A stretch of 64,000 bases of DNA from Candidatus Microgenomatus sp. (GCA_020724585.1 DYGS01000001.1:2893-66892); one strand, 5' to 3'. Positions 9,471 through 63,511 are shown, numbered from the stretch's first letter. Translations and numbers: made by a program. Notes: generated from the sequence alone by a model not told the origin.

Positions 9471-11573
9471 GTGAAGAAAAAAAATTATATTTTCAAATTT
9501 TTTGAAATTGTTGGCAGGCCATTTTATTTTCTACTGTCAGGAATTTTTATTGCTTTGATATTCACTTTATACATAATTGGCCATACTGTAACCAAAGCGG
9601 TCAAACTGATTACAAAGATAGAAATAAAAAAAAATAAAAAATATTTAATACTTTGTTTGCTTCTCTCGTTGGTTTTTGTTTTTTATTATTTAATTTTAAA
9701 AGATTTACCCTCCCCTAAAAAACTTACGAGTAGAAATATAGAACTTTCCACCAAAATATATGACAGAAATGGAATTCTTTTATATACAATATACAAAGAC
9801 AAAAACAGAACTCCTGTCAAACTTTCGCAGGTTCCAAAACATGTTCAACTTGCAACATTAGCTGCCGAGGATGCAGAATTTTACATGCATCCAGGATTTT
9901 CTATTCGAGGAATGCTTAGAGCTATCACTAAAAATTTAAAAGAAGGTAAACTTGAAGGCGGATCAACAATTACTCAGCAACTTGTCAAAAATGCTCTTTT
10001 GTCATCTGAGAAAACTTTTATTAGAAAAGCACGGGAACTGATTTTATCTGTGGGCGTTGAACTAACTTATGAAAAAGACCAGATCCTTGAAATGTATTTA
10101 AATGAGGTTAATTATGGAGGTACAGTCTATGGAATTGAAGAGGCCGCAAGACACTATTTTGGTAAAAATGTTGAAAACTTAACACTTTCCGAAAGTGCGA
10201 TGCTTGCGGGACTTCCTAAAAGTCCAACAAAATTCTCACCCTTTGGGGGTAATCCCGATCTTGCTTTTGCACGCCAAAGGGAAGTCTTATATTTGATGAA
10301 AGTTAATAAATTTATAACTGAAGAAGAAGAAAACAAAGCAATAAATCAGAGACTTTCATTTATCGCTAACAAACAAAATATTTTAGCTCCCCATTTTGTT
10401 ATGTATATCAAGGAAAAATTGGTAGACATGTACGGCGAAGAGATGGTTTTGACGGGTGGATTAAGCGTTACCACCTCACTTGATTTAAATATTCAACTAT
10501 TGGCTGAAGAGGCCGTTAAAGAGGAAATAGATAAACTCAAAAACCTAAATGTAGGAAATGGAGCAGTTGTTATATTAAACCCAAAAACATTTGAAATTCT
10601 AGCTATGGTTGGAAGTAAAGATTATTTTGATATTCAAAATGGAGGCAATGTTAATGTAACAGTTAGACCTCGTCAACCAGGATCTTCAATAAAAGTCATA
10701 AACTATGCTCAAGCACTCTCCGGTAATTATACTCTGGCAACAATAGTTGACGATACTCCGATTACATACATCATAAAGGGCCAGCCCCCATACTCGCCTA
10801 AAAATTACGATAATACTTACCGTGGGAAAATGACGGTCAGACAAGCCCTTGCCCAATCAAGAAATATTCCCGCTGTTAGAATTTTGGCATCTTACGGAGT
10901 TTCCGAAATGATTGATTTGGGGCAGAAAATGGGAATTACAACCTGGAATGACAGATCCAGATTTGGACTGTCGCTAACGCTTGGCGGAGGGGAAACCAAG
11001 CTATTGGATTTAGCTTCAGTATATGCAGTAATTGCCAATTACGGTAAAGGAAAGCAAATAAAAGACATTTTGGAAGTTAAAAATAATAACGGAAAGATCC
11101 TATATTCCAAAAATAATTTTGAGGAAAATGGAGAACAGGTTATAGACCCAAGAGTTTCATACTTATTGATTGATGTTTTGAAAGATAACATTGCCCGTTC
11201 CCCCGCTTTTGGCGCCAATTCAATGCTTGTGATTCCCAATCATCCTGAAGTAGCAGTAAAAACTGGTACGAGTAATAACTTAAAAGACAATTTAACAATT
11301 GGCTTTAGTCAAGATTTTGTCGTTGCTGTCTGGGTGGGAAACAATAACGGTTCACCAATGGCCAGAATCGCATCGGGCATAACGGGCGCCGCGCCTATTT
11401 GGAATAGAATTATGAAAAGTTTGCTTTTCGATAAAGAATCTGTTGAGTGGCCAACCCCCCAAGGCTTGGTTTATAAAGAGTGTTTTTCCAGAAAAGAATG
11501 GTTTTTAGAGGAAAAGCAATTAAGCTGTCCCAAGATTATCGAGCCCGCCGCGACTGATATCTTGATAGAGTAG
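9471..11573 (+). CDS. Class A penicillin-binding protein (second tandem paralog)
   Basis: GTG start. AEDAEFYMHPGFS, GGSTITQQL, GSSIKV and KTGTSNN motifs. Confidence 0.85.
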   Translation: MKKKNYIFKFFEIVGRPFYFLLSGIFIALIFTLYIIGHTVTKAVKLITKIEIKKNKKYLILCLLLSLVFVFYYLILKDLPSPKKLTSRNIELSTKIYDRNGILLYTIYKDKNRTPVKLSQVPKHVQLATLAAEDAEFYMHPGFSIRGMLRAITKNLKEGKLEGGSTITQQLVKNALLSSEKTFIRKARELILSVGVELTYEKDQILEMYLNEVNYGGTVYGIEEAARHYFGKNVENLTLSESAMLAGLPKSPTKFSPFGGNPDLAFARQREVLYLMKVNKFITEEEENKAINQRLSFIANKQNILAPHFVMYIKEKLVDMYGEEMVLTGGLSVTTSLDLNIQLLAEEAVKEEIDKLKNLNVGNGAVVILNPKTFEILAMVGSKDYFDIQNGGNVNVTVRPRQPGSSIKVINYAQALSGNYTLATIVDDTPITYIIKGQPPYSPKNYDNTYRGKMTVRQALAQSRNIPAVRILASYGVSEMIDLGQKMGITTWNDRSRFGLSLTLGGGETKLLDLASVYAVIANYGKGKQIKDILEVKNNNGKILYSKNNFEENGEQVIDPRVSYLLIDVLKDNIARSPAFGANSMLVIPNHPEVAVKTGTSNNLKDNLTIGFSQDFVVAVWVGNNNGSPMARIASGITGAAPIWNRIMKSLLFDKESVEWPTPQGLVYKECFSRKEWFLEEKQLSCPKIIEPAATDILIE

Positions 11574-12223: not shown

Positions 12224-13153
12224 CTACCTTGTATGTTCAGTATATAATAGTTTAGTTAATTTTGGAAATAATTCATCTGCTTCTTTCTCAACCACCCCAT
12301 CTGTCATAATAACAAGCACAAAAGGCCTACTGCTCATTACAACTCCCGCATCGTTTACACTATGCACCTCTCTACCATATTTATGAGCAAGTCTAATTTC
12401 AGACGGAATGCCCAAACGAAGCCATTTTTCAAAATTAGTATCTGTTAACGATTCCAAAAATTTATTTGTTAAATCATCGCTTAATAATTCTTTTTTATAT
12501 AATTTTTTGAAAAACAAGCCAATATCCTCGGGTGTTGTGATATTTTCTGATAACGATGTATTAATCATTCCTAAATCTAATATGGCCTTATTTATATTTT
12601 CTTTACCCAGCGTTTCAAGTATTTTAAGGTAAATATTGTTATCAGATTTTTTTCCCATCGCCAAAACATCAGGCCATTTTTTTTCATCCTGTATTGCAAG
12701 ATACATAACAGGCAGTTTAATCAAAGAAGCCGCTTGCATTTTTTCTTGATGATTTAGGCCATAATAGTAATCGCCGTTTAAGTCATAAATATAAAAAGCA
12801 TAAATTCCCGAGTAGCCATTTGTTGCATCCTTAAATAGTTTCTTTACATTCTCAATTTTTTCCAAATTTATAGACGAACCTTTATTGCCAACAACAATTA
12901 CATCTTCCTCAAAAGGGTTTAGCTTTGAAAAATCAGGAATCGAAATTTTTGGCAAATTTGGAAGTTTGAAGTTGCGAGCAGATAGAGCTAAGATTGTTGA
13001 GGTTCCAACTGTTAATAAAAGCATTACTAAAACAAAAAGTCTCTCATAAACTCCCCACGGTTTAATAATTTGCTTTTCTCGAGATAGATTTTCCCTAGCC
13101 TTCTTATTTTCAGGCTTCAAATCCCTAATCTCATTTTTTTCAAAAACTCCCAT
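12224..13153 (-). CDS. membrane-anchored class A beta-lactamase-like serine hydrolase
   Basis: N-terminal TM anchor, then SLIK (SxxK), KSDNN (SDN) and KYG (KTG-like) motifs in the correct order. Confidence 0.55.
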   Translation of the reverse strand: MGVFEKNEIRDLKPENKKARENLSREKQIIKPWGVYERLFVLVMLLLTVGTSTILALSARNFKLPNLPKISIPDFSKLNPFEEDVIVVGNKGSSINLEKIENVKKLFKDATNGYSGIYAFYIYDLNGDYYYGLNHQEKMQAASLIKLPVMYLAIQDEKKWPDVLAMGKKSDNNIYLKILETLGKENINKAILDLGMINTSLSENITTPEDIGLFFKKLYKKELLSDDLTNKFLESLTDTNFEKWLRLGIPSEIRLAHKYGREVHSVNDAGVVMSSRPFVLVIMTDGVVEKEADELFPKLTKLLYTEHTR

Positions 13154-13158
13154 GCTAA

Positions 13159-13192
13159 AATTCTACCATTTAATTCTTGACATTCACACACA
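13159..13192 (+). repeat. 34-bp direct repeat copy 1 (aattctaccatttaattcttgacattcacacaca) with TTGACA and (CA)4
   Basis: Exact match to 13856-13889. Together the two copies flank the BrnT/BrnA module. Confidence 0.85.
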
Positions 13193-13205
13193 AAACTTCA
13201 GTACA
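13177..13205 (+). promoter_or_regulatory. promoter-like element P1 (TTGACA -35, CA-repeat spacer, weak -10); no downstream + strand gene
   Basis: TTGACA at 13177-13182 followed by cacacaca. The best -10 candidate (tacaaa) needs a 19-nt spacer. Confidence 0.3.
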
Positions 13206-13230
13206 AAGAAGCAAATAAGGCAAATTAGAA

Positions 13231-13509
13231 TTACATTGCAAAATCATCTTGAAGTCCTTTAGAAATATATTGTTTCATTAAAGTTTGATATGGCATATCT
13301 TTTTTGTTAGCCATCATCTTTACTCTTGTCAATAAACTCTCGGTGATTCTTAAAGAGATTGGCTTTTTTGTCAACTGTAAATTGGGAAATATAGCATGTT
13401 TAGCTTTACTCCAATCAAAATAATCTGTAGAATCTGCTTTATCCCAAAAATCTCTTTCTTCATCCTCTGTTTTAAAATTAGGAATTTGTTTAAGTTTTTT
13501 TACTTTCAT
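13231..13509 (-). CDS. brnA: BrnA antitoxin (CopG/RHH family)
   Basis: FWDKADSTDYFDWSKAK...ISLRITESLL...YQTLMKQYI pattern. Overlaps the upstream BrnT gene. Confidence 0.7.
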   Translation of the reverse strand: MKVKKLKQIPNFKTEDEERDFWDKADSTDYFDWSKAKHAIFPNLQLTKKPISLRITESLLTRVKMMANKKDMPYQTLMKQYISKGLQDDFAM

Positions 13510-13795
13510 AGATCTTCCTCTCTTTCTTGTTCATTCTTCTCGCAGATATTATTCTAATTTTTTCATTTCTAATTGTAAAAAAGATACTGATCAGGTCACT
13601 GTGTGCTGACTTACCAATGATCTGGAATCTATCTTCAAATTTAGAATGCTCCAAATCTTCAGCCAAGAGCGACTCATTATCTAAAAAAACACTTTCTGCT
13701 TCTTCATTTGAAATTCCGTGCTTTTTAAAATTTTTATCTTTATTTCCTTTATCCCAATCAAAAACAATTGGTTCAAGAATAATAATATTATTCAT
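13490..13795 (-). CDS. brnT: BrnT toxin (DUF497 ribonuclease toxin)
   Basis: FDWDKGNKDKNFKKHGISNEEAESVF and RIISARRMNKKER match the BrnT/DUF497 consensus. Confidence 0.75.
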   Translation of the reverse strand: MNNIIILEPIVFDWDKGNKDKNFKKHGISNEEAESVFLDNESLLAEDLEHSKFEDRFQIIGKSAHSDLISIFFTIRNEKIRIISARRMNKKERKIYESKKT

Positions 13796-13855
13796 AATCA
13801 GTATATACTACATCTATACAAATTGTCAAGATAACTTATGCCAAACCCCTTAAAT

Positions 13856-13897
13856 TAATTCTACCATTTAATTCTTGACATTCACACACACACACAC
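13856..13897 (+). repeat. 34-bp direct repeat copy 2, here extended to (CA)7
   Basis: Same 34-mer as 13159-13192. The CA tract is longer (13883-13897). Confidence 0.85.
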
Positions 13898-13903
13898 TAA
13901 ACT
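13875..13903 (+). promoter_or_regulatory. sigma70-type promoter P2: TTGACA, 17-nt CA-repeat spacer, TAAACT
   Basis: TTGACA at 13875-13880 and TAAACT at 13898-13903. The ATG at 13914 gives a leaderless or very short-leader mRNA. Confidence 0.55.
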
Positions 13904-13913
13904 CGTAGTTAAT

Positions 13914-14330
13914 ATGGCGGAGGAAGTAAGTAACGTTAATCAAGATTTAATAAGCGAAGCACTTAGTGACTTTCGCGAATCAACCGGCCAAAAACCCCAA
14001 AAAGAAGTTGTTTCTGTTGATAAAATTCTTGAAACCGCCAAACAAGTTGCAGTAGACTTTAAAAACAAAGCCTTTGAAACAGTTAATAAATTTCCAAACA
14101 AACTTGATTTTCTTCAGGCATCATTTATGGGCGCGGTTTCGGTTCTACCAGATTTTTATATATATGCCTTAAACTCACCAAATTTTCCTGCTAATGAGCC
14201 TGTTTCAAAGATGTTAGGTACTGTTATGTTTGGTGTCGTGTCGGTTATTTCAAAAGCAGGAACAGTTGAATTATTTAAAGCATGGCATGAAAAAAGCTTT
14301 CCAAAAGCAGAGGTACAGGCAAAACAATGA
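13914..14330 (+). CDS. hypothetical protein (start trimmed to MAEEV)
   Basis: The track ORF starts at 13875, but MTFTHTHT is just translation of the CA repeat. The Met at 13914 follows promoter P2. Confidence 0.45.
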   Translation: MAEEVSNVNQDLISEALSDFRESTGQKPQKEVVSVDKILETAKQVAVDFKNKAFETVNKFPNKLDFLQASFMGAVSVLPDFYIYALNSPNFPANEPVSKMLGTVMFGVVSVISKAGTVELFKAWHEKSFPKAEVQAKQ

Positions 14331-14689
14331 CTACATTTACAACTTTTTTAAATAAAATAAATCAATTTTCAGAACTTTTAGGTTTATCTCAAGAGGACAT
14401 GACAAAAATAAAATCGGATCTACTTGAGGGCGTTTTTTATGATTTAACTTCTAATCTTGCTAGTGATCCTAACCAAAAAACAAATTTGGAAAATCTATCC
14501 AAAATTAAACCAGTTACACAAGATGATTTTGACAAATTTATGTCTGAAGCCTCTACTTTATTAAAAAATGAAGGTTACGATATTAACGAAGCTTTTGATA
14601 AATCTGCAAAAACAGTACTTGAGGCGTTTATTGCAAAACTTGGTAACAGTCTCCCGCAGGATAAAATTGAGGCTCTAAATAAAATTTAA
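14327..14689 (+). CDS. hypothetical protein
   Basis: Start overlaps the previous stop (ATGA), suggesting an operon. No motif recognised. Confidence 0.4.
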   Translation: MTTFTTFLNKINQFSELLGLSQEDMTKIKSDLLEGVFYDLTSNLASDPNQKTNLENLSKIKPVTQDDFDKFMSEASTLLKNEGYDINEAFDKSAKTVLEAFIAKLGNSLPQDKIEALNKI

Positions 14690-14702
14690 CAAGAAGAATA
14701 AA

Positions 14703-15722
14703 TTACTTTCTTCTCTTTTCCCAAACTTCCTTGTTAACTATATTGGGGGGCATTTCAGAAGAATTTACTTTTAAGATGGCAGAAACTGCCAATTCTCCCA
14801 TTTTTTCTCTAGCTTCAACTGTTGCTGAGGCTATGTGTGGTGTTAATATTACATTTTCCATTCCTATTAGTTCTGGATCAATGTTTGGCTCATTATCATA
14901 TACATCAAGTGCAGCTCCTGATAAATGTCCACTTCTTAGAGCTTCAACAAGGTCATGCTCATTAACAACAGGCCCTCTTGCTGTATTAATTAAATAGCTT
15001 CCCTTTTTCATTTTTGAGAATGCTATAGCATTCATCATGTGCCTTGTTTCATCTGTTAACGGCACATGAAGGGTAACTATGTCTGATGTTTGTAAAAGTT
15101 TTTCTAATTCCTCATATCTAACACCTAATTCTTGTTCCACTTTTTCATCTCTTGTTCTTTTATTATAAATAACATTCATACCATAGCCTCCAGCTCTTTT
15201 AGCAACCATTGTTCCAATTCCTCCAAGACCAACTATTCCCAAGGTTTTACCTCTAAGTGATGTGCCTAAAAATATATCAGGCTCCCAGCCTTTATATGCT
15301 CCTCTTTTGGTGGCTTCATCTGCCTCAACTACCCTTCGGCAAAGGCTCAAGGCAAGGGCCCAAGTGTGTTCGGCAACTGCTTCATCAACTTCTTCGCATG
15401 GAGTATTACAAACTACTATTCCCCTCTCAGTTGCATCTTTGATGTTGATATTATCAAAACCAACTGCATAGTTACTAATTAATTTAAGTTGGGGGCCAAT
15501 AGCATCCATTACCTCTCCATCAATTTTGTCAGTTAAAAGAGATAGAATGTAGGAACTATCTTTACTTCCCTCTAAAAACTCATCGGATGTTAAAGGTCTA
15601 TTAAATTCTGATACTTTAACATCAAAACCTTTATCATCTAGGTCTTTTAAATGAGTCGTGGGAATTTGTCTTGATACAAAAACTTTCATTTGATTAAGGT
15701 TATCATAATTTATAACAAGCAC
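14703..15722 (-). CDS. D-isomer-specific 2-hydroxyacid dehydrogenase (glycerate/hydroxypyruvate or phosphoglycerate dehydrogenase-like)
   Basis: NAD-binding GIVGLGGIGTMVAKRA and a catalytic His/Glu/Arg pattern (LTPHIASAT). Confidence 0.8.
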   Translation of the reverse strand: MLVINYDNLNQMKVFVSRQIPTTHLKDLDDKGFDVKVSEFNRPLTSDEFLEGSKDSSYILSLLTDKIDGEVMDAIGPQLKLISNYAVGFDNINIKDATERGIVVCNTPCEEVDEAVAEHTWALALSLCRRVVEADEATKRGAYKGWEPDIFLGTSLRGKTLGIVGLGGIGTMVAKRAGGYGMNVIYNKRTRDEKVEQELGVRYEELEKLLQTSDIVTLHVPLTDETRHMMNAIAFSKMKKGSYLINTARGPVVNEHDLVEALRSGHLSGAALDVYDNEPNIDPELIGMENVILTPHIASATVEAREKMGELAVSAILKVNSSEMPPNIVNKEVWEKRRK

Positions 15723-15739
15723 AAAACAAAATGACTATA

Positions 15740-16735
15740 TTACATCTCATCCACTTTTACACCAGAGGATTTAAATCTTTCAACCCAAATATCAATATCG
15801 TTTTCCTTAAGAAGTCCTCTTTGCGCCCCCGTATAACCTATAACTGATGCGGAGTTAACACTTCCCCACACTAAACACTCGTCAAGAGACTTGCCTTTGA
15901 TTTGTGCAGACAAAAAGCCGGACCCAAAAGCGTCTCCCGCCCCCGTTCTTTCAAAAGCATCAACAGGCAAAGGTGGGCAATGAAAAAAATTGGCCCCATC
16001 AAAAGCATAAGCTCCAACTCCACCATCGGTAATTACTGAAACTTTGGGCCCCAAAGCAGAAAGGGCCAGCAATAGCTCACGGCTAACAAAGTCTTTAGCA
16101 GCAAAACCTGTTAATTTTTCTGCCTCCTGTTTATTAACAAAAATAGTATGCGCAAGCTTCATTACTTTATCAACAGTTTCAGATTTTTCTTTTAATTGCC
16201 AACTGCCTGGATTAAAAACAAGTTTGATTTCTGGATTTTTAAGGAGCCATTCAACCATATGATTATAAAACGGCATATAAGATTCTCCCATTGAAGTCAA
16301 ATAGACATACGACACTCTAGGAAGTTGAACTGGAAATTCATAACTTCTGGGGGCATGATAGGTAAAAATTGTTCTTTCACCTGAATAAGTTAAAACTACA
16401 TTAAAATTCGAGTTTGTTGCGGGCTGTTGAATAACATAAGTTAAATCGACCTCCTCCTTTTTCAAAGACTCAACTATCTGATTTCCAATGCTATCATCCC
16501 CAAGCGTCAACACTAAACCACATTTTATCCCCAATCTTGATGCGCCAACCGCGTTATTGGCTGCATTTCCGCCAACCGAAAAATCTAGACTTTTAACGGG
16601 AATTTTGTCGGCATATGAAAAGGCAATTAAACACTCTTTTGTGTTAATGTTGCAAAGTGACTCGGATTCAGATGGATTAATAAAAGCATCCATATTGCAA
16701 TCCCCAATGGATAGTAAGTCTAAGTTCATGGCCAT
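15740..16735 (-). CDS. PfkB-family carbohydrate kinase (ribokinase superfamily; possible phosphofructokinase)
   Basis: N-terminal GG motif region and C-terminal TGAGDAF anion-hole motif. Confidence 0.7.
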   Translation of the reverse strand: MAMNLDLLSIGDCNMDAFINPSESESLCNINTKECLIAFSYADKIPVKSLDFSVGGNAANNAVGASRLGIKCGLVLTLGDDSIGNQIVESLKKEEVDLTYVIQQPATNSNFNVVLTYSGERTIFTYHAPRSYEFPVQLPRVSYVYLTSMGESYMPFYNHMVEWLLKNPEIKLVFNPGSWQLKEKSETVDKVMKLAHTIFVNKQEAEKLTGFAAKDFVSRELLLALSALGPKVSVITDGGVGAYAFDGANFFHCPPLPVDAFERTGAGDAFGSGFLSAQIKGKSLDECLVWGSVNSASVIGYTGAQRGLLKENDIDIWVERFKSSGVKVDEM

Positions 16736-17721
16736 TACAACTCTCCTTCCCTAGCTAGTGATGTTTTTTTAAGTACTTCTAAAAACTTTTCTTGAGCAAT
16801 TATTACATTTTCTTTTTTTCCTGACCAAATACTCATAGCATCTTGCTGAAGCGCCCTACTGAAAGAAAATGATAAATCCCATGGACCAAAATGTTTTTCT
16901 TTGTTTAATTTAACAATCTCATTTAAGTTAAATATTGCCTGATCGGGAGCCTGCCCTCCTGAAAGAAATACAATTCCAAAAACTTCTTGGGGTACTGAAT
17001 TTTGAAAGGATCGAAGCGTTGAATTTGAAACTTCTAAGGGCATAACGGAAACACCGCTGTCTTTTCCAGGTAAGACCATGCTTGCTTTAAGTATCAAGTT
17101 GGTTACATCAACATTTTTTTGTTTCAATATTTCAAATAATTTTTTAAGTACCTTTGTTGTGACTTCTTCACATCTTGTATTTGTATGTTTTCCATCATAC
17201 AAAACTTCCGGCTCGACAATTGGCAGCATTTCTAAGTCTTGTACAATTTTTGCATAATCAGCCATTTTACCTAAAGTGTCGTCTAAAAATTCATCTGTTG
17301 GATATAAATCAGAAATATTTATTACTCCCCTCCATTTGGTAAATTCTGCTCCTAGTTTTTTGTATTCTTCAAGTCTTTCTTTTAAACCATTAATTCCTTT
17401 TGTAGTTTTTTGATCAGTATCTTTAAAACTTTCCAGTCCCTGATCGACTTTAATGCCAACAACAATACCTTTATTTTTTAAAATTTCGGCAAATGGCTCG
17501 CCCTGAGCTTTTTGTCGGAGGGTTTCGTCAAACAAAATTACTCCACTTATATATTTTTCAATATCCGGGGTCGTAAACAACATTTCTCTGTATTCTTTAT
17601 TCAATTCAGGAGTAGAAACTAAACCAAGATCAGAAAATCTTTTGGTAATAGATGGCGTTGACTCATCTGCAGCCAAAATTCCCTTGTAATGTACTAATAG
17701 TTTTCGGACAGTATCTTTCAT
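16735..17721 (-). CDS. fba: Fructose-bisphosphate aldolase, class I (glycolytic type)
   Basis: KGILAADESTPSITKRF motif of the class I (Schiff-base) aldolase family. Confidence 0.75.
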   Translation of the reverse strand: MKDTVRKLLVHYKGILAADESTPSITKRFSDLGLVSTPELNKEYREMLFTTPDIEKYISGVILFDETLRQKAQGEPFAEILKNKGIVVGIKVDQGLESFKDTDQKTTKGINGLKERLEEYKKLGAEFTKWRGVINISDLYPTDEFLDDTLGKMADYAKIVQDLEMLPIVEPEVLYDGKHTNTRCEEVTTKVLKKLFEILKQKNVDVTNLILKASMVLPGKDSGVSVMPLEVSNSTLRSFQNSVPQEVFGIVFLSGGQAPDQAIFNLNEIVKLNKEKHFGPWDLSFSFSRALQQDAMSIWSGKKENVIIAQEKFLEVLKKTSLAREGEL

Positions 17722-17738
17722 ACATTATAAGATTACAC

Positions 17739-18734
17739 TCATGCGTTCTTTTTGGCAATTAACTTTTTAATGGATTTAATAATATCTTCTTTTGCTAAAC
17801 CATATTCTTTAAAAAGCTCATCTGGTTTTCCTGATTGGCCAAATCTGTCTTGGACCCCAAGCATCTCCATATGCACAGGAAAATTTTTAGAAAGTGTTTG
17901 GGATACAACTGATCCTAGTCCTCCTATTACTTGATGTTCCTCAATTGTCATAATGGCATTAGTAAGTTTCGCATATCTGATAACCACTTCTTCATCGAGG
18001 GGCTTTATTGTGTGCATATTAATAACTATCGTTTCTATTCCATTTTTTTCAAGCTCTTTATAAGCTAACAGTGCCTGATAAACCATTAATCCATAGGCAA
18101 TAATTGCCACCTCGGGCTTTTTACTTTCAGTTAAAATATTTGCTTTCCCGATTTTAAATGGCGATTTTTCAGTCGTATAAACAGGACTTTCAATTCTTGG
18201 AAGTCTCATGTAGAAGGGCTTATCAATTTTGGCCATTTCTAGCGTTGCCTTTTTTGCTTCATTGTAATCACTTGGAGCAACTACATTCATACTTGGTATA
18301 ACTTGGGCAAGAGCAATATCTTCTAAACCCTGATGTGTTACGCCGTAATGACCAATATTAAGTCCGCTTTGTGCCCCAATTATTTTTACAGGATAACCAT
18401 CGATTCCAATTGTTGTTCTAATTTGTTCCCAATTCCTGCCTGGAGAAAATATCGCATAGGATGTTGCAAACGGAATCTTGCCGAAATTTGCAAGGCCTGA
18501 AGCAATTGTAACTAGGTTTTGTTCTGCAACTCCAACTTCAATAAATCTTTCAGGAAATTTATCTGCAAAGTAGTTAACTTTTGTAGATTCTTTTAAATCT
18601 GCAGTTAATGCAACTATTCTTTCATCTTGTTCACCTGCCTCCAATAACCCATGTCCAAAACCATCCCGCATGAGTTTCATTTCAATCTTTTTAGTAAATA
18701 TGTCAGGATTTAGATTTAATTTAGCATTTAGCAT
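17739..18734 (-). CDS. Transketolase, C-terminal subunit (split transketolase)
   Basis: Pyrimidine-binding and C-terminal domain motifs (EQNLVTIASGLA, GAQSGLNIGHYGVTHQ). Confidence 0.8.
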   Translation of the reverse strand: MLNAKLNLNPDIFTKKIEMKLMRDGFGHGLLEAGEQDERIVALTADLKESTKVNYFADKFPERFIEVGVAEQNLVTIASGLANFGKIPFATSYAIFSPGRNWEQIRTTIGIDGYPVKIIGAQSGLNIGHYGVTHQGLEDIALAQVIPSMNVVAPSDYNEAKKATLEMAKIDKPFYMRLPRIESPVYTTEKSPFKIGKANILTESKKPEVAIIAYGLMVYQALLAYKELEKNGIETIVINMHTIKPLDEEVVIRYAKLTNAIMTIEEHQVIGGLGSVVSQTLSKNFPVHMEMLGVQDRFGQSGKPDELFKEYGLAKEDIIKSIKKLIAKKNA

Positions 18735-18744
18735 TTGTAATTTG

Positions 18745-19593
18745 TCACTCCCCGTAAGGGGTTACCTTTCCTCCCATTGTTCTAATTTCCATAATTGCTT
18801 TTTTGGCTTCAATGTCATTTGGCGCTTTAGCATGCCAATTGGGATTATTTTCCATGAAATCAACTCCCATTCCCGGGATAGTATGAGCAATTATTACAGT
18901 CGGATTTTCAAATATGCTTCTGGCTTTACTGCAGGCTGAAACAATTTCATCAAAATTATGTCCGTCTATATCAATCACTGACCAGCCAAATGACTTATAC
19001 TTATCCAACAAGGGCTCGAGCGGCATAATATCTTCTGTATGCCCATCAATTTGAATATTATTTCTATCAACAATCAAGGTTAAATTTGAGAGATTGTTTT
19101 TACCTGCAAACATAACAGCTTCCCAATGGTTTCCCTCATTATGTTCCCCATCGGAACAAATAACGAATGTTCTAAATCTTTTTTTATCCATCCTTGCCCC
19201 ATATGCAACCCCGCAAGCCTGTGATAATCCCGACCCAAGCGGGCCTGATGTTGTTTCAAGACTTTTTAAAAATCTCTTATCAGGATGTCCCTGTAAAATA
19301 CTTCCAAATTTACCAATTTTAAAAAGCTCTTTGTGCTCAAAATAACCTCTATGGGCCATAACTGCATATCTTGCGGGACAAATATGACCATTTGACAATA
19401 CTAACCTGTCTCTATCTTCCCAGTCAGGTTTTTTAGGGTCATGAAGTAAAATCACATAGTAAAGTGTTACTAAAACATCAACCATACCAAGTGAACCCGC
19501 AGGGTGCCCATAACCTGCTTTTAAAATCATTTCAATGATATCTTTTCTAACTTCCTTTGATATTTCTTGTAATTCTTCTGTTGTATACTTCAT
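18745..19593 (-). CDS. Transketolase, N-terminal (TPP-binding) subunit
   Basis: GHPAGSLGMVD, LSNGH, GDGEHNEG and GSLGQG-like thiamine-PP binding motifs. Confidence 0.8.
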   Translation of the reverse strand: MKYTTEELQEISKEVRKDIIEMILKAGYGHPAGSLGMVDVLVTLYYVILLHDPKKPDWEDRDRLVLSNGHICPARYAVMAHRGYFEHKELFKIGKFGSILQGHPDKRFLKSLETTSGPLGSGLSQACGVAYGARMDKKRFRTFVICSDGEHNEGNHWEAVMFAGKNNLSNLTLIVDRNNIQIDGHTEDIMPLEPLLDKYKSFGWSVIDIDGHNFDEIVSACSKARSIFENPTVIIAHTIPGMGVDFMENNPNWHAKAPNDIEAKKAIMEIRTMGGKVTPYGE

Positions 19594-20240
19594 TTTGTGA
19601 ATGCCGCGTCGTACTTATCCATTTGACCATCAACATTATGGTTTCTTTCCACAATCTGATTTTCAAATTTTTTTATAATAGGAAGGACATCATCTACTCT
19701 ATTTGCAATTTCAAAAACTGAAAGTTCCTTATTGTCTATGTTCATATTCTTTCTAAAAACATCAATTATTTCTGCCCAATAACTACCAAAAAGGATAAAT
19801 GGTTTGTGGTGCCCATAATATAGTTTTGCCAAAACCCAAGCAGTTCCAAATTCTGATATTGTTCCAGTTCCTCCTTTAAACATGATAAATAAGTCACCAT
19901 ATTCCATAAGTTTAAACATTCTTTCGATGTAATTTGTCGTCACCACTTCCTCGTCGGGAACATTACCAACATATTTTCCCTCAAAGCCAGGTGCGTTTTG
20001 CGGATCGAAAGTAATCGTTATGGTTTTCCCTCCGCCACTTCTAGCCCCATTTGTTGCAGCTTCCATTACACCCGGTCCACCGCCATCAACTACGACATAA
20101 CCTTCTTTTGCTAAAATTTCTGCAACTTTAAAGGCTTGTGTATAAACTTCATCGCTTTCAGCAATATCTGCGTCTCCAAAAAAGGCAATATTTTTAATTG
20201 CCTTACCGCTATTATTTGCGTATTTTTTTGATTCTTCCAT
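19590..20240 (-). CDS. LOG-family protein (TIGR00730 Rossmann-fold, cytokinin riboside 5'-monophosphate phosphoribohydrolase-like)
   Basis: GGGPGVMEA and PGGTGTISE motifs. Confidence 0.8.
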   Translation of the reverse strand: MEESKKYANNSGKAIKNIAFFGDADIAESDEVYTQAFKVAEILAKEGYVVVDGGGPGVMEAATNGARSGGGKTITITFDPQNAPGFEGKYVGNVPDEEVVTTNYIERMFKLMEYGDLFIMFKGGTGTISEFGTAWVLAKLYYGHHKPFILFGSYWAEIIDVFRKNMNIDNKELSVFEIANRVDDVLPIIKKFENQIVERNHNVDGQMDKYDAAFTK

Positions 20241-20271
20241 AATTTATTTAACCAATAAAAATTAATATTTC

Positions 20272-21387
20272 TCAAGAAACTTTGTGTAAAAGCGTAATTG
20301 GATCAGATGGCACATGACTGCCTTCCAAGTTTCTACCCACTCTAATTACTTGTTCTACTAGTCTATTTGCATATCCCCACTCGTTGTCATACCAAGCAAA
20401 AACCTTAACCATATTTCCCGCAACGACTTGCGTTAATGGCAAATCAACAATTGCGGACTCACTTCTTCCTACTATATCACTTGATACCAAAAATCCCTCA
20501 GAAACTGCTAATATTCCCTTATAAATGGGATTTTCTACTGCTTCTTTAAAGGCATTATTAACTTCTTCTACGCTTACTTCTTTTTTCAAGAGAAATGTAA
20601 AGTCAGTAATTGATCCTGTTGCAACAGGCACTCTTAAACTCATACCATCAAAGAGGCCTTTTAAATCAGGTATTGTTTCAGTTACGGCAATGGCCGCTCC
20701 TGTTGTTGTTGGAACTATATTCACCGCTGCAGCTCGGGCTCGGCGAAGATCTTTATGTGATCCATCTTGCAAATTTTGGTCATCAGTATAACTATGAATT
20801 GTTGTCATCATGGCTTTTTCTATACCAAATTTAGCTTGCATAACTGCTGCAACAGGAGCCACGCAGTTTGTAGTACATGATGCATTTGAAATTACTGTTG
20901 CGTCTCGCAGTCCTGAGCCTGTCGAAGGATTCTCGTTTACACCTAAGACATAAGTGCCAACATTACCACCTTTACTGGGAGCTGAAATAATTACCCTCTT
21001 AGCTCCACCAACAGCATGTTTTTTTGCATCCTCTTCTGAGGTAAATCTTCCAGTTGATTCAATAACCACATCAACTCCATATTTGCTCCATGGGATTAAA
21101 CTTGGATCTTTTTGGGCTAAAACTGGAACATCTACATTGCGTTCTGGAATTAACAAACTTCCTATTTTTGTATCTTCGTTTTTTTCTAAGTACTCTGTAC
21201 TCTGTACTTTGTACTGGTATTCCCGATACATAGTGTCGTAGTTAACCAAATGCCCCCAACCATGAACATCCATTGATCCTGAAGTATTAATTGCACCAAT
21301 CTTAATTTCATCTAGGTGCTTGGATACAGCAATCCTGAAGGCTAATCTTCCTATTCTTCCAAAACCATTGATTCCAACTTTTACCAT
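20272..21387 (-). CDS. gap: Glyceraldehyde-3-phosphate dehydrogenase, type I
   Basis: NGFGRIGR, SNASCTTN and WYDNEWGY motifs. Confidence 0.9.
   Translation of the reverse strand: MVKVGINGFGRIGRLAFRIAVSKHLDEIKIGAINTSGSMDVHGWGHLVNYDTMYREYQYKVQSTEYLEKNEDTKIGSLLIPERNVDVPVLAQKDPSLIPWSKYGVDVVIESTGRFTSEEDAKKHAVGGAKRVIISAPSKGGNVGTYVLGVNENPSTGSGLRDATVISNASCTTNCVAPVAAVMQAKFGIEKAMMTTIHSYTDDQNLQDGSHKDLRRARAAAVNIVPTTTGAAIAVTETIPDLKGLFDGMSLRVPVATGSITDFTFLLKKEVSVEEVNNAFKEAVENPIYKGILAVSEGFLVSSDIVGRSESAIVDLPLTQVVAGNMVKVFAWYDNEWGYANRLVEQVIRVGRNLEGSHVPSDPITLLHKVS
21186..21217 (+). repeat. GTAC-rich short repeat inside the gap coding sequence (encodes QYKVQSTEYL on the minus strand)
   Basis: ctaagtactctgtactctgtactttgtactgg. 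Same length as the corresponding GAPDH segment in other species, so this is a replacement rather than an insertion. Confidence 0.6.
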
Positions 21388-21562
21388 GTGAGCAGTATTT
21401 AGTTAAAGTATAAGATTAAGTTTAAGAATATTAAAGACTCACTTTGGAAAGACTTTGAGGTAATTCGTTAGCTATCTTTACTAATACTGTAGCTAACTTC
21501 ATGGCTTTCTGCCAAACAATAAGTTTTTCAAAATATAACATATCTTAAACTTGTACTTAATC

Positions 21563-22555
21563 TTAAACTGTTAGTGCTTCAATACCCACAAGATTATCAT
21601 TAACTAAATATTCAATCATTGCACCACCGCCTACGGATACCCAATCAAACTTGTCTGCCAAACTATATTTATTAATAGCAGCTAAACTATCTCCACCCCC
21701 CACTACTTTAAAAGCTTTTGAACTGGCTACAGCCTGAAAAACTTTTCTTGTTCCTTGACTATGGCCTTCATCTTCAAATTTACCTAAAACTCCTGCCAAA
21801 ACAATTGTTTTTGCTTTTAAAATTTCTTGGGTAAAAACTTCAATTGTATTTAATGTTATATCCTCTTTGTCTTGTATAAGATTCGCTATTATTATTTTTC
21901 CCGTTTGATTTCTAACACTTTTAAGTCCTTTGTCACCCATTAAATCAGGAAGTTTGCCTCCAACTAATACTTTATCTGCAAGTTTTGATAATGGCTCAAC
22001 CATTTTTAGTTTGTCTTCTTTAACTCCACTTATCAACACAACAAGTGGTCTTTCTGGTTCATTTTTAATTTTGTCTAAATTATTGATCTCGTTCTCTAAA
22101 TTTAGACCTGCATAAGAAGGCAAATATTTTGGTATCCCCACAATTGAAGCATGGCTTCTATGACAGACACTAAATGCTTCATTTACATAAATATCTGCCT
22201 TACTTGCCAACTCTTTGGCAAATTCCATAGCTCCTTTGTCCTGAGCGGGGTCGAGGGATTCTCTTGGGTCAAATCTCAAGTTTTCTAATACTTCAAAATC
22301 TGACCTTCCCAACATTTCTTGAAGAACTTTTTCAATAGGTTTTAGACTTAAACTTTCATCTTTAACTCCATTGGGCCTACCCCTATGCCCTATTAGTATT
22401 ATTTTTGAATTATTTTCAATTAAAAATTTAAGTGTAGGAACTAATCTTTGAAGTCTAATGTCTTTTTCTGATAGATCACTAACATCTAAATCCCCCCTAA
22501 CAATTATTCTTTTTCCTTTTAAGTCTTTTTTTGTGAGTGAAGAAAGTAGTTTCAT
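21563..22555 (-). CDS. pgk: Phosphoglycerate kinase (compact, 330 aa)
   Basis: LKGKRIIVRGDLDV, GHRGRPNG and GGGDS...GGGAM motifs. Confidence 0.8.
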   Translation of the reverse strand: MKLLSSLTKKDLKGKRIIVRGDLDVSDLSEKDIRLQRLVPTLKFLIENNSKIILIGHRGRPNGVKDESLSLKPIEKVLQEMLGRSDFEVLENLRFDPRESLDPAQDKGAMEFAKELASKADIYVNEAFSVCHRSHASIVGIPKYLPSYAGLNLENEINNLDKIKNEPERPLVVLISGVKEDKLKMVEPLSKLADKVLVGGKLPDLMGDKGLKSVRNQTGKIIIANLIQDKEDITLNTIEVFTQEILKAKTIVLAGVLGKFEDEGHSQGTRKVFQAVASSKAFKVVGGGDSLAAINKYSLADKFDWVSVGGGAMIEYLVNDNLVGIEALTV

Positions 22556-22585
22556 TACATTTAATCATAGTTTATTCTTACTAAG

Positions 22586-22616
22586 TTGACAATCACACAC
22601 ACACACTGGCTAGAAT
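22586..22616 (+). promoter_or_regulatory. sigma70 consensus promoter P3: TTGACA, 19-nt spacer containing (CA)6.5, TAGAAT
   Basis: Perfect -35 and a near-consensus -10. The ATG at 22624 lies 7 nt after the -10, implying a leaderless transcript. Confidence 0.6.
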
Positions 22617-22623
22617 ACGCTGT

Positions 22624-22848
22624 ATGGCTACAATTACAATTGTGAGAGATGGTAAACCAAATTTAACTTTGGATATTCCCGATGAAATCGTAAGTGTTGT
22701 TGGAGCAGAAGTGTTATTGATGGGTTTAGAGGCCGAAGAAACCAGTAATAGATGGGGAGGTATTGGTGAAGAAGAATTGGAAAAAATAAAAGAACTTGGT
22801 AGGGCATTAATAGGTAAACATGTGTACGGAGAAAGAGAAAGACTTTAA
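22624..22848 (+). CDS. hypothetical small acidic protein
   Basis: 74-aa ORF directly downstream of P3. Confidence 0.45.
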   Translation: MATITIVRDGKPNLTLDIPDEIVSVVGAEVLLMGLEAEETSNRWGGIGEEELEKIKELGRALIGKHVYGERERL

Positions 22849-23231
22849 TTATTAGCTTCTAATTCCTTTATTTCTTTGTCAAAACTTAAAACTTTATATT
22901 TGTTAGCATTGGCTGAAGAAAGCAGATAGCTATCTACAAAATGTAATTTATTTCTGTAATTAGTCCACATTCCCAAAAGCCCTTTTCTGTCCTCCACTAT
23001 TAGCCATTTTTGGGATAATAGAACTTCCATACATGACGCAATTTCATTAAGAGATTTTTTATAAAACGATTCTAGTACAAAACATGTTTCCGCCACAACA
23101 ACCACTTTGATTAGTAACTTTAACTCACCCGCTTCAGCTTTTTTGAATATATCAACAGATTTTTTATAAAGTATTTCACTATCTCCAACCAGATACCTAA
23201 GTATTATATTTGTGTCTATTATATTAATCAT
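22845..23231 (-). CDS. vapC: PIN-domain toxin (VapC-like), start trimmed to MINIIDTNIIL
   Basis: PIN N-terminal motif IIDTNIILRYL. The upstream antitoxin overlaps by 8 nt (ATGATTAA). Confidence 0.7.
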   Translation of the reverse strand: MINIIDTNIILRYLVGDSEILYKKSVDIFKKAEAGELKLLIKVVVVAETCFVLESFYKKSLNEIASCMEVLLSQKWLIVEDRKGLLGMWTNYRNKLHFVDSYLLSSANANKYKVLSFDKEIKELEANN

Positions 23232-23469
23232 TTCTAGCCCAATTTTTAGAAAAACTATCACGAGCCTTACGAAGCTGTTTATCAGATAACACAGTATCGG
23301 ATTTAAGTGATCCTGCCAGAGACCAAAAATCTTGTTTTGGAGAAACAATTATTGTGTTCCCTACTTTTTGAGCAATAGCCTTGGTGGCACCATGAACACC
23401 TAAATCCTGAAGCATAAGCCTAGGAATTGAAATTTGCCCCTGACTTGTAATTGAAACTATTTGTTGCAT
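23224..23469 (-). CDS. vapB: AbrB/MazE/SpoVT-family antitoxin (VapB-like)
   Basis: ITSQGQISIPRLMLQDLGV swapped-hairpin motif. Confidence 0.65.
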   Translation of the reverse strand: MQQIVSITSQGQISIPRLMLQDLGVHGATKAIAQKVGNTIIVSPKQDFWSLAGSLKSDTVLSDKQLRKARDSFSKNWARND

Positions 23470-23524
23470 TACATTATTATGGTATATCTACATTATTTTG
23501 TCAAGTCACATTATTTACTTGAAG

Positions 23525-23553
23525 TTGACAATCACACACACACTGGCTAGAAT
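23525..23553 (+). promoter_or_regulatory. sigma70 consensus promoter P4: TTGACA, 17-nt spacer containing (CA)5.5, TAGAAT
   Basis: Near-identical to P3 (agttgacaatcacaca...ctggctagaat) but one CA unit shorter. ATG at 23560. Confidence 0.65.
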
Positions 23554-23559
23554 GCAGGT

Positions 23560-23778
23560 ATGGATAAAGAAAAATCGGGTCTTTCATGGTTAATAAGGGG
23601 GGAGAAATGTGAAGATGATTCATTTTTTTGTAAAAAAAACTGTGGGGCAACAGGTAAGCAGACTATAGAATATTTTAAAATATTCGGGGTTGTTATTAAA
23701 TCTCGTGTAAAGAGCTTTGAAATTTCTGGTGGCAATCCTGATTGTAAACACACTTGGCAGGATCATGGCTTAATTTAG
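23560..23778 (+). CDS. hypothetical small Cys-containing protein
   Basis: 72-aa ORF downstream of P4. Four Cys residues and no signal peptide. Confidence 0.4.
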   Translation: MDKEKSGLSWLIRGEKCEDDSFFCKKNCGATGKQTIEYFKIFGVVIKSRVKSFEISGGNPDCKHTWQDHGLI

Positions 23779-23799
23779 ATGATTATTTAGACTCACCAC

Positions 23800-24249
23800 T
23801 TAATTATTTGCTTCCAGCTTTTCAATTTCATCAAGTCTTCTTTCATGCCTAGCATTTTCTTCATATTTTGTTTCTAAAAAAGCAATTAACATTCCTTTGG
23901 CTTCTTTTTCCGTTGTGTAATCTGATGCAATAACTAATATGTTCATATCATCATCTCTTCTTCCTGCTTTTACTTGTAATACTGACTTTCCAATTGCAGC
24001 TCTAATACCATCAAATTTATTTGCAACAACCTCAACTCCTACTCCACTTCCACAAAGTAGTACCCCTCTGCTATGGGGTCTTTTAGCAACCATTGAGGAA
24101 ACCATTTCTGCGTATTTTGAATAATCATCATCGGGGTCAAAATGCAAAGCACCTAAATCCTCAAAATCATAATTCATGTCAAACAACCATGTGGCTATTT
24201 TTTCTTTTAACTCATATCCCCTATGATCGCTACCGATAAATATCTTCAT
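23800..24249 (-). CDS. rpiB: Ribose-5-phosphate isomerase B
   Basis: MKIFIGSDHRGYELKEKI and CGSGVG motifs (RpiB/LacAB family). Confidence 0.85.
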   Translation of the reverse strand: MKIFIGSDHRGYELKEKIATWLFDMNYDFEDLGALHFDPDDDYSKYAEMVSSMVAKRPHSRGVLLCGSGVGVEVVANKFDGIRAAIGKSVLQVKAGRRDDDMNILVIASDYTTEKEAKGMLIAFLETKYEENARHERRLDEIEKLEANN

Positions 24250-24908
24250 TATTTAAATCCTTCTACCAATTCTAACAGTTCTCTTTTAGGATCGCTACTT
24301 AACATCACATCACTTGCAACAGCGACACCCGTTGCACCCAGGCTCAAACTTATACTAATATCCTTTTGCGAATGAATCCCAGCTCCAACGATAAGCGGCA
24401 CACCTGAATTTTTGGATATTAAAACCGCTTTTGATATTATTTCAGGCTGGCTTGTTGCAACTGAAACATCTTTACTTCCTATTAAGGCAGGTGGTTCGTA
24501 GGAAACAAAATCTGGTTTAATTTCAAGCGCTTTTTCCATTTCTTCTATGTCTTTAGTGAAAATTAATGTTTTTAAACCAACTTCTTTTGCTCTTAAATGT
24601 GCTTTTGATAACGTTTCAAAGTCAACAAATCTATTTTCTGAATGATTTAGAACTGTACCAACTGCGCCATCCTCAAAAACGCCTTCAGCTAAAATGCTAC
24701 CTGTATGCGCCCCATATGTAACAGGGTCTATCTTTTGTGCCCAAATTTCAATTGAAGTTGTGCTTACAATTTCCTTAATATCAGAAGGTTGAACAACTGG
24801 TATTATTTTTACACCAGTTTCTTTGGAGACATCTTGAACTTTGTTTGCCATCAAAACAGCATTCTTACCTGTCCCACTTTCGTAAGTTTTAAAATTCAAA
24901 AAAATCAT
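24249..24908 (-). CDS. tpiA: Triosephosphate isomerase, archaeal-type (short, ~220 aa)
   Basis: NFKTY, VLNHSENR, YEPPALIG and VGAGIHS align with archaeal TIM (INYKTY, LINHSEKR, EPPELIG, CGAGIS). Confidence 0.8.
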   Translation of the reverse strand: MIFLNFKTYESGTGKNAVLMANKVQDVSKETGVKIIPVVQPSDIKEIVSTTSIEIWAQKIDPVTYGAHTGSILAEGVFEDGAVGTVLNHSENRFVDFETLSKAHLRAKEVGLKTLIFTKDIEEMEKALEIKPDFVSYEPPALIGSKDVSVATSQPEIISKAVLISKNSGVPLIVGAGIHSQKDISISLSLGATGVAVASDVMLSSDPKRELLELVEGFK

Positions 24909-28208: not shown

Positions 28209-28385
28209 TTAATCAAAGTTTTCAGGGACTCTAATTGTTATAGGCGTTGATGTGAGTTTTAAATTTGGAAACACCCACTTTTCAGCTTTATCCCAGTCTA
28301 AATATTCAAAAGAATTAGCGTTTTGCCAAAATAAACTCTCTTCTTTTTCTGATTTAAACTTTGGTACCCTTTTTAATTTTTTCAT
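28209..28385 (-). pseudogene. truncated BrnA-like antitoxin fragment (58 aa, lacks C-terminal RHH)
   Basis: Minus-strand translation MKKLKRVPKFKSEKEESLFWQNANSFEYLDWDKAEKWVFPNLKLTSTPITIRVPENFD aligns with the N-terminal 60 aa of BrnA at 13231-13509. There is no adjacent BrnT. Below the ORF-track length cutoff. Confidence 0.55.
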
Positions 28386-41816: not shown

Positions 41817-41833
41817 TCTGATATATAATACTA

Positions 41834-41864
41834 TGTACTAAGTACTTTGTACTATGTACTGTAT
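41834..41864 (+). repeat. GTAC-rich short repeat (atgtactaagtactttgtactatgtactgta)
   Basis: 26/27 identical to 63886-63912. Member of a dispersed repeat family found at 7 or more loci. Confidence 0.7.
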
Positions 41865-61040: not shown

Positions 61041-61210
61041 GCCAAACTTTGTTTATTATTTTATTCACTTTGTGAAGGGTGAGGAGGAAAGAGGGAAAAG
61101 GAATGAGGAAAGAGAGAAAACAGAACAGAGGAAAGAGAAGTGAGGAGAGAGTTAACCACAAAAACTCATTCCTACTTACTCATTCCTGTTTCCTGTTCAC
61201 TCATTCCTAA
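61041..61210. repeat. homopurine (GA-rich) tract followed by its imperfect reverse complement (cctcattcc repeats)
   Basis: ggaatgagg occurs in the purine arm, and cctcattcc occurs three times in the pyrimidine arm, so the region can fold into a long imperfect hairpin or H-DNA. Confidence 0.55.
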
Positions 61211-61573: not shown

Positions 61574-61599
61574 ATCTTAATCATACACTTTCCTCATTC

Positions 61600-63313: not shown

Positions 63314-63358
63314 TTGTGAAAATGTTGATCTAGTTGCACCATAAACAGTACAGAGTAC
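63314..63358 (+). repeat. 45-bp direct repeat B flanking the AAA ATPase gene
   Basis: ttgtgaaaatgttgatctagttgcaccataaacagtacagagtac matches copy A. Confidence 0.75.
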
Positions 63359-63420
63359 TTAGTACAAAGTACATAAATATCACTGTGAAACATTAAACAA
63401 GTTGCAACAAAAGCTTCACA

Positions 63421-63490
63421 TAGTACGATAAAGGTAGTACCTAGTACAAAGTACACAGTACATAATACACAGTACATAGTACATAGTACA
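63421..63490 (+). repeat. GTAC-rich microsatellite-like tract (agtac/catagtaca units)
   Basis: tagtacaaagtacacagtacataatacacagtacatagtacatagtacatag. The track ORF 63301-63513 is just its translation. Confidence 0.7.
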
Positions 63491-63511
63491 TAGAAAAAAC
63501 AAACACAAAAC

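Follow-up and report, generated by a model that had tools for sequence, protein, structure and literature searches.

In a 64,000-nucleotide stretch of DNA from Candidatus Microgenomatus sp. (GCA_020724585.1, DYGS01000001.1:2893-66892; the whole stretch is called the window below), two near-identical promoters, P3 and P4, stand in front of small open reading frames (ORFs) next to a toxin-antitoxin module, and most of the spacer between their -35 and -10 hexamers is a CA repeat, one unit longer in P3 than in P4. What does this repeat do in such a place? It could be a switch that alters the promoter by replication slippage; it could drift neutrally in front of genes that are being lost; the two promoters could be scars of a duplication, the difference between them being incidental; or the CA-rich spacer could itself be a regulatory or structural element. 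As argued below, the CA tracts probably are slippage-prone promoter-spacer switches for small orphan genes beside toxin-antitoxin modules, a reading of the sequence that we hold with a good share of doubt.

Structure of P3 and P4

A preliminary description had reported that P3 and P4 are near-identical, with spacers of 19 and 17 nucleotides (nt) that differ by one CA unit, that both have a TTGACA -35 and a TAGAAT -10, and that small ORFs of 74 and 72 amino acids (aa) follow. Direct reading of the sequence confirms all of this:

22586..22616, + strand: P3 promoter, orthologous to the promoter proximal to phosphoglycerate kinase (PGK) in the related loci L065, L066 and L068; TTGACA at 22586-22591, 19-nt spacer AT(CA)6C TGGC at 22592-22610, TAGAAT at 22611-22616
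23525..23553, + strand: P4 promoter, orthologous to the VapB-proximal promoter of L014, L032, L035 and L068; TTGACA at 23525-23530, 17-nt spacer AT(CA)5C TGGC at 23531-23547, TAGAAT at 23548-23553

The (CA)6C tract of P3 occupies 22594-22606, and the (CA)5C tract of P4 occupies 23533-23543. When 22583-22616 is set against 23522-23553, one CA unit is the sole difference, and the likeness picks up again at gtATGG. The start codon of the ORF behind P3 (ORF74, ATG at 22624) lies 7 nt past the -10, as had been described for both promoters, whereas that of the ORF behind P4 (ORF72, ATG at 23560) lies 6 nt past it.

Two further elements with a CA tract, P1 and P2, lie at a second locus of the window. 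The sequence TTGACANTCACACACA occurs 4 times in the 64-kb window (0.01 expected), and CACACACA has 10 matches (0.79 expected), all of them within the four tracts of P1-P4; all tracts of at least four CA units in the window fall there as well. A chance origin of the P1-P4 motifs is thus excluded by motif frequency. The repeat is a perfect tandem one between the -35 and the -10, with 5.5 units in P4, 6.5 in P3 and 7.5 in P2.

The optimum of a sigma70 promoter spacer is 17 ± 1 nt. P4 agrees with the consensus hexamers in 11 of 12 positions at a spacing of 17 nt, and P2 in 10 of 12 at the same spacing. P3 has the same hexamers as P4, yet it falls outside the 16-18-nt range of the sigma70 spacing criterion because its spacing is 19 nt. 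An alternative -35 for P3, GACAAT, which would restore a 17-nt spacing, was rejected, as only one of its six positions matches.

The promoter family in related genomes

About 40 related loci (denoted by L and a number) were gathered: PGK was used to scan genomes and VapB to scan metagenomes, and homologues of PGK were looked up. The closest PGK relatives belong to Candidatus Woesebacteria metagenome-assembled genomes, with identity of at most 75%; in the protein collection there is no PGK at 75-100% identity, that is, no closer relative for the study of microevolution, and the best identity in the VapB-based scan is 84%. As far as these genes indicate, the host is an uncultivated, groundwater-type, Woesebacteria-like bacterium of the Candidate Phyla Radiation (CPR).

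The window and the related genomes together hold 17 distinct promoters of this type, and all their spacer lengths are odd:

7 nt: 1 promoter, a decayed remnant with a 9-codon ORF (L035, position 764)
11 nt: 1 promoter
13 nt: 1 promoter
15 nt: 4 promoters
17 nt: 8 promoters, the modal length
19 nt: 2 promoters

Within sub-families the number of CA units alone sets the spacer length: AT(CA)5CTGGC makes 17 nt (P4, L067), AT(CA)6CTGGC makes 19 nt (P3, L066), and TT(CA)4CTGGC makes 15 nt (L032). The distance from the -10 to the start codon is 6-8 nt in 16 of the 17 members and 10 nt in P2. At least 12 related genomes of Woesebacteria keep the whole layout (-35, spacer, -10, 6-8 nt, ATG) at orthologous positions (the loci that conserve it include L014, L017, L018, L028, L031, L032, L035, L062, L065, L066 and L068), and the downstream ORFs are unrelated. 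This conservation bears out the earlier proposal of sigma70-type promoters with a leaderless layout.

The spacer is not always a pure repeat. At the orthologous position of L014, whose PGK is 75% identical, we observe TTGACA-ATTACACATAATCTGAA-TAGAAT-6 nt-ATG, with a 17-nt spacer that has no pure tract, and the 17-nt spacers of L017 (TTCACCCGCACAAGGCC) and L028 (CCCACAAAGACACATCC) are likewise C/A-rich and free of a pure repeat. Where tracts of at least four CA units do occur, 11 of the 15 distinct ones follow directly after TTGAC[AT]NN (316 kb, window and relatives). To judge by the shared layout, P2, P3 and P4 are one conserved Woesebacteria promoter type. A phage origin of the promoter was considered and rejected, since none of five IMG/VR matches has the -10/ATG layout.

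A -10 followed by 4-8 nt and an ATG also precedes VapB, BrnT, PGK, the gene starting at 26161 and a beta-lactamase-like gene. As the same layout recurs at VapB, BrnT and the gene at 26161, leaderless starts appear to be common in this genome.

Variation of tract length between assemblies

L066 (SRR24881069) and L067 (SRR22388160), two assemblies of one related strain, have an identical PGK protein, and their sequences align over 1346 nt with 0 mismatches. They differ only by a gap of 2 nt in the CA repeat of the spacer, which is 19 nt long in the former and 17 nt in the latter, as would be expected from the signature of a hypermutable repeat. A literature search for papers citing the run or sample accessions found none.

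The preliminary description had also held that the tracts change length in this lineage, and had taken the differences between the copies as the proof. The former stands, as homologous spacers of 11-19 nt step by CA units and L066 and L067 differ by one; the latter does not hold within the window, where the copies are paralogues, P1 and P2 form an insertion scar (see below), and five assemblies are invariant.

Proposed mechanism of switching

The promoter type can be written as TTGACA, two bases, (CA)n, 0-8 further bases, TAnnnT, 6-8 nt (10 in P2) and the start codon. Because the start codon is so close to the -10, the mRNA would have no leader or nearly none, and no Shine-Dalgarno sequence. 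Since a CA microsatellite makes up most of the spacer, slippage during replication would alter the -35/-10 spacing by 2-nt steps. Under the general sigma70 spacing rules, a promoter with 17 nt (P4, P2) would be fully active, with 15 or 19 nt (P3) weak, and with 11-13 nt off, so that the expression of small lineage-specific genes would be switched by mutation of the tract, in principle reversibly. The genes concerned would be those in the two slots around VapB/PIN in the Grx-TIM-RpiB-PGK-GAPDH operon and in a second locus adjoining BrnT/BrnA. As the repeat gains and loses units in related genomes, slippage-driven switches are probable; the leaderless initiation, the reversibility and any adaptive value we infer.

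For dinucleotide repeats, cut-offs of at least 5 units (PMC2651432) and at least 6 units (PMC6321876) have been applied to phase-variable loci, and both directions of switching should exceed a threshold rate if a locus is to be called phase-variable (PMC11868660, a paper that emphasises frequent, reversible and adaptive switching). The 5.5-7.5 units found here are at or above these cut-offs, yet borderline, at the lower edge of the range, and P1 has only 4 units.

Small ORFs behind the promoters

22624..22848, + strand: ORF74, 74 aa, predicted leaderless layout, convergent with the PIN toxin gene with overlapping stop codons; orphan
23560..23778, + strand: ORF72, 72 aa, predicted leaderless layout, Cys-containing, convergent with RpiB

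Among 5.8 billion proteins, the only match of ORF74 is ORF74 itself, and no Pfam family scores above the cut-off; possible weak relatives in L032 (64 aa) and L035 (79 aa) are seen by eye only, BLASTP being not significant. Neither does ORF72 have a Pfam match above the cut-off. Its one distant match is to the repeat motif GGNPxxGGTWxxNGL of an 1840-aa surface protein of the type IX secretion system, which is too weak for a function to be assigned. Single-sequence AlphaFold (AF2) models of both proteins are poor (predicted local distance difference test, pLDDT, 55.6 for ORF74 and 46.3 for ORF72). A simple tandem duplication of ORF72 and ORF74 was rejected, as the ORF bodies cannot be aligned.

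The small ORFs of the related genomes, nine of which gave nothing above the Pfam cut-off, make up several unrelated, mostly orphan families:

Cys-rich, ORF72-like
ORF74-like (by eye only)
88-aa 'QEAAIFAGD' family (L062, L065, L068)
four-Cys family (L017, L018, L068)

Depending on the genome, either slot may hold one and the same family; the one common to L017 and L018 is related with E = 9e-19. Intact ORFs of 64-102 aa are found downstream of spacers of 11, 13, 15 and 19 nt.

As neither ORF74 nor ORF72 is followed by a terminator-like site, transcripts started at P3 and P4 would continue in antisense into PIN/VapB and RpiB; antisense transcription as a second function of these promoters is speculative. 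ORF callers extend ORFs through the promoter, creating artificial 'THTHT' N-termini from the CA tract (13875-13916 in the window; 3400-3480 in L059; also L060 and L061). In L059 the likelier start is a GTG 7 nt past TAATAT.

The hotspot between RpiB and PGK

The operon Grx-TIM-RpiB-PGK-GAPDH is conserved among the relatives, and its RpiB-PGK junction is variable. The junction is empty in L016, L019, L020, L022 and L069; other relatives have there a module of the VapB/PIN or RHH/PIN kind, a small ORF or a pair of them on the opposite strand, or a combination of the two. In the window it comprises, besides P3, P4 and their ORFs:

21563..22555, - strand: PGK gene, flank of the hotspot
22564..22592, - strand: PGK promoter, TTGTCA (22592-22587), 17-nt spacer, TATGAT, 8 nt, ATG at 22555
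22845..23231, - strand: PIN-domain toxin gene, VapC-like (Pfam PF01850, E = 7e-10)
23224..23469, - strand: VapB-like antitoxin gene, AbrB/MazE-like (weak Pfam signal, MazE/AbrB E = 0.039, below the cut-off)
23476..23504, - strand: VapB promoter in leaderless layout, TTGACA-17-CATAAT with the ATG 6 nt further on; it stands back to back with P4
23471..23515, + strand: three ACATTATT repeats (starts at 23471, 23490 and 23508) in the VapB promoter region
23800..24249, - strand: RpiB gene, with its 3' tail at 23800-23814 (GAAGCAAATAATTAA on the - strand)

The -35 of the PGK promoter overlaps that of P3, so that the two form a bidirectional core, an arrangement repeated in L065. The ACATTATT repeats are spaced by 18-19 nt and kept in the VapB relatives, and are likely the operator of the antitoxin.

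The P3-PGK junction is orthologous in L065, the PGK-proximal promoter being present in L066 and L068 as well, and the P4-VapB junction is orthologous in L014, L032, L035 and L068. By this orthology, P3 and P4 occupy two old slots that are conserved separately. Each slot of the hotspot has the promoter at one side and the C-terminal tail of RpiB at the other. The last codons of the PIN gene (22845-22859, ...EIKELEANN and stop) copy the RpiB tail, and this tail, ...EIEK(L/I)EANN and stop (GAAGCWAATAATTAA), is duplicated at the PIN end in the window, L031, L034, L035 and L068; in L035 it also survives as a non-coding remnant (1491-1505). Every insertion into the hotspot thus seems to copy the RpiB tail, resembling the duplication of an attachment site. 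A collapsed remnant of a cassette is seen at 700-790 of L035 (also in L036), where TTGACA, a 7-nt spacer, TAAAAT, 7 nt and an ATG precede a 9-codon ORF that runs into the RpiB tail, and a second RHH/PIN module adjoins.

The promoter and the 'EANN' tail of RpiB could be the ends of an exchangeable small-gene cassette, in which orphan genes would be swapped by recombination and their expression gated stochastically by slippage in the spacer. We offer this only as a tentative and rather doubtful extension.

A few kb away from the hotspot there is another antitoxin gene of the CopG/BrnA type (about 28209-28249; L001, 1-41), and the window is rich in toxin-antitoxin modules. An Rfam scan of 12800-24400 returned no known RNA family, only one sub-threshold chance match.

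The BrnT/BrnA locus with P1 and P2

13159..13192, + strand: P1, left copy of a 34-nt repeat with (CA)4; TTGACA at 13177, TT(CA)4; vestigial on the + strand
13231-13509, - strand: BrnA/CopG antitoxin gene (Pfam PF12441, E = 2e-31)
13490-13795, - strand: BrnT toxin gene (Pfam PF04365, E = 1e-25)
13231..13795, - strand: BrnT/BrnA segment between the P1 and P2 repeats, with its own promoter TTGACA-18-TATACT at 13829-13800
13857..13903, + strand: P2, right copy of the 34-nt repeat; TTGACA at 13875-13880, 17-nt spacer TT(CA)7C, TAAACT at 13898-13903
13914..14330, + strand: 138-aa orphan ORF, predicted to be driven by P2

The domains of the type II toxin-antitoxin modules at both loci, PIN (PF01850), BrnT (PF04365) and CopG/BrnA (PF12441), score above the Pfam cut-off. 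The start codon of the 138-aa ORF (13914) lies 10 nt past the -10 of P2, and the leader is predicted to be about 3 nt long. This ORF has no homologue among 5.8 billion proteins and no Pfam family above the cut-off. The length of the P2 tract is unchanged in SRR5011273.

P1 and P2 are contained in an exact 34-nt direct repeat (13159-13192 and 13857-13890). On the + strand P1 has neither a usable -10 at a workable distance nor an ORF. On the - strand the same repeat contains TGgTAGAAT (13168-13160), followed after 6 nt by the start codon (13153) of the beta-lactamase-like gene, and by this arrangement the 34-nt repeat is a bidirectional promoter core. Since this core serves the beta-lactamase-like gene, P1 looks like a scar of the insertion of BrnTA into a compact divergent promoter region, and the copy would have been retained because its opposite strand carries the -10 of that gene. 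P1 is no switch. Of the second promoter family that had been proposed for P1 and P2, with (CA)4 versus (CA)7, P2 remains, but as a member of the same type as P3 and P4, and P1 is not a + strand promoter.

Comparison of the alternatives

If the CA tract is a mutational by-product that drifts neutrally, off-length spacers should mark dispensable orphan genes in the course of being lost. The genes are indeed orphans, P1 and the promoter at position 764 of L035 (7-nt spacer, 9-codon ORF) are decayed remnants, the slots are empty in L016, L019, L020, L022 and L069, and five window-strain assemblies show no variation; all this would suit such a drift. We nevertheless consider it unlikely, since full-length ORFs persist downstream of 11-19-nt spacers, pure uninterrupted tracts are kept in many lineages at 25-50% PGK divergence, and the modal spacer is still 17 nt. 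Alternatively, the promoters could be nothing but direct repeats left by the insertion of toxin-antitoxin cassettes or by segment duplication, the one-unit difference having arisen incidentally and later. For P1 this is true, as P1 and P2 are an exact 34-nt repeat flanking BrnTA. For P3 and P4 it is insufficient: although they flank ORF74 with PIN/VapB, the 3' tail of RpiB is duplicated at the PIN end, and the promoters of one genome (the window, L068) are more alike than orthologues, their positions are separately orthologous elsewhere (P3-PGK in L065 and L066; P4-VapB in L014, L032, L035 and L068), the ORFs behind them cannot be aligned, and a duplication accounts for the origin of the copies, not for the unit-wise series of lengths across genomes. 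As an explanation of the whole, duplication alone is very unlikely. Finally, the CA-rich spacer may serve as a repressor operator or as a Z-DNA-prone, supercoiling-sensitive element, its length varying as a side effect, and both the C/A-rich spacers with no pure repeat in L014, L017 and L028 and the start TTGACA(A/T)TCAC common to different loci would fit. No regulator emerged as a candidate, lengths varying from 11 to 19 nt would not be tolerated by an operator, and the other promoters of the window lack the motif; such a role, which would be compatible with slippage switching in any case, seems to us highly improbable.

The slippage switch is best supported, as it accounts for the unit-wise length series, the preserved ORFs and the pure tracts together better than its rivals do. 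Several observations weigh against it. The sole polymorphic case, L066 versus L067, rests on one short Logan contig, whose end is 20 nt from the L067 tract. Five independent assemblies of the window strain, picked by identical proteins (JGI 3300029893, SRR6488399, SRR28264341, SRR5011273 and SRR5011275), are all 100% identical to the window at the consensus level, tract lengths included, and the sets L059-61, L062/63 and L035/36 likewise have no tract change. This makes about 1 change in some 15 same-strain tract comparisons, a rate that, on these assemblies, is elevated relative to substitutions but not extreme. The CA tracts are short next to the (TA)9-11 of hifA/B. The genes under control are orphans with no signal peptides or known domains, and phase variation typically concerns surface or restriction-modification genes, to which they do not belong.

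Other repeats and genes of the window

A 7-nt unit, (A)GTAC(W)NN, is repeated in tandem, up to 8.4 times, at 63435-63493, 63344-63375, 55190-55221, 41829-41860, 63875-63905 and 21190-21215; these arrays appear mostly intergenic, the last one being inside the GAPDH coding region (YREYQYKVQSTEY), and are possibly a repeated protein-binding site. Purine-rich arrays of the GAGGAAA type, then pyrimidine-rich ones of the TTCCT type, are located at 61084-61151, 61169-61208, 52393-52418 and 61590-61615. Two tandem penicillin-binding-protein-like genes (transglycosylase/transpeptidase) may be paralogues because a conserved stretch is common to both (8244-8280 and 10593-10629). Transketolase is split over two genes at 17739-19593, one for the N-terminal part (18745-19593) and one for the C-terminal part (17739-18734), and is also split in L059 and L066.

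Significance

To our knowledge, nearly all cases of repeat-driven phase variation come from host-associated pathogens, and none of the papers listed by a full-text literature search combines phase variation with the CPR. New here is not the mechanism, which has been described before, but the phylum, the unit repeated, the leaderless layout and a cassette-like setting. Should the CA tracts indeed switch, environmental bacteria with tiny, regulator-poor genomes would rely on mutational switches, by which the expression of small genes of fast turnover beside toxin-antitoxin modules would be diversified. The series of 11-19-nt spacers is a natural experiment on promoter spacing that lies ready, and the hotspot a defined place for studying gain, exchange and loss of orphan genes in CPR genomes. 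If the cassette interpretation were true as well, it would be a contingency-cassette system within a core metabolic operon of an uncultivated symbiont with a reduced genome.

Comparison with known systems

The closest parallels are promoters with repeats in the spacer. The fimbrial promoter hifA/hifB of Haemophilus influenzae has (TA)9-11 between the -35 and the -10 (van Ham et al. 1993, described in PMC2651432). Both systems have a dinucleotide repeat as spacer, 2-bp steps, a compact divergent promoter region and strain-specific numbers of units. They differ in the unit (TA there, CA here) and in its number (9-11 there, 4-7.5 here), in that here the tract is in the spacer of only one of two divergent promoters and the transcripts are predicted to be leaderless, and in the products, which are fimbriae there and here small orphan proteins of an uncultivated CPR bacterium in which switching is predicted.

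Vmm of Mycoplasma mycoides has a repetitive promoter region in which dinucleotides are inserted or deleted (Persson et al. 2002, summarised in PMC2628566). As proposed here, transcription in this reduced-genome bacterium is turned on and off by slippage of a promoter dinucleotide repeat, whereas Vmm, a lipoprotein of the surface, has been demonstrated to switch at high frequency, and switching of the CA promoters is predicted. The repeat unit of Vmm is reportedly TA. In porA of Neisseria meningitidis, phase variation depends on a poly-G homopolymer in the promoter spacer (PMC3639595). There, too, a repeat tract in the promoter modulates the level of expression and not the reading frame, but the repeat is a mononucleotide one, with 1-bp steps and graded expression, in contrast to the 2-bp steps here.

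The placement of the start codons resembles that in Mycobacterium, where toxin-antitoxin and small-protein genes have leaderless transcripts (PMC3898074, PMC4633059, PMC8485053). In both cases the start codon is at the predicted transcription start, about 6-8 nt past the -10, and this arrangement is found preferentially with toxin-antitoxin modules and small proteins; the phylum is a different one, the mycobacterial spacers have no repeat, and the layout described here is predicted. The hotspot as a whole is reminiscent of integron cassette arrays. Neither an integrase nor an attC-like site came to notice in the ORFs between 11.5 and 26 kb or at the related loci; no search aimed at them was made, and most of the genome lies beyond the window. 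As in integrons, repeat-bounded slots at one hotspot are filled with toxin-antitoxin modules and with small genes that are unrelated and often orphans, but here each small ORF has its own promoter, which forms one boundary, a housekeeping gene's 3' tail forming the other.

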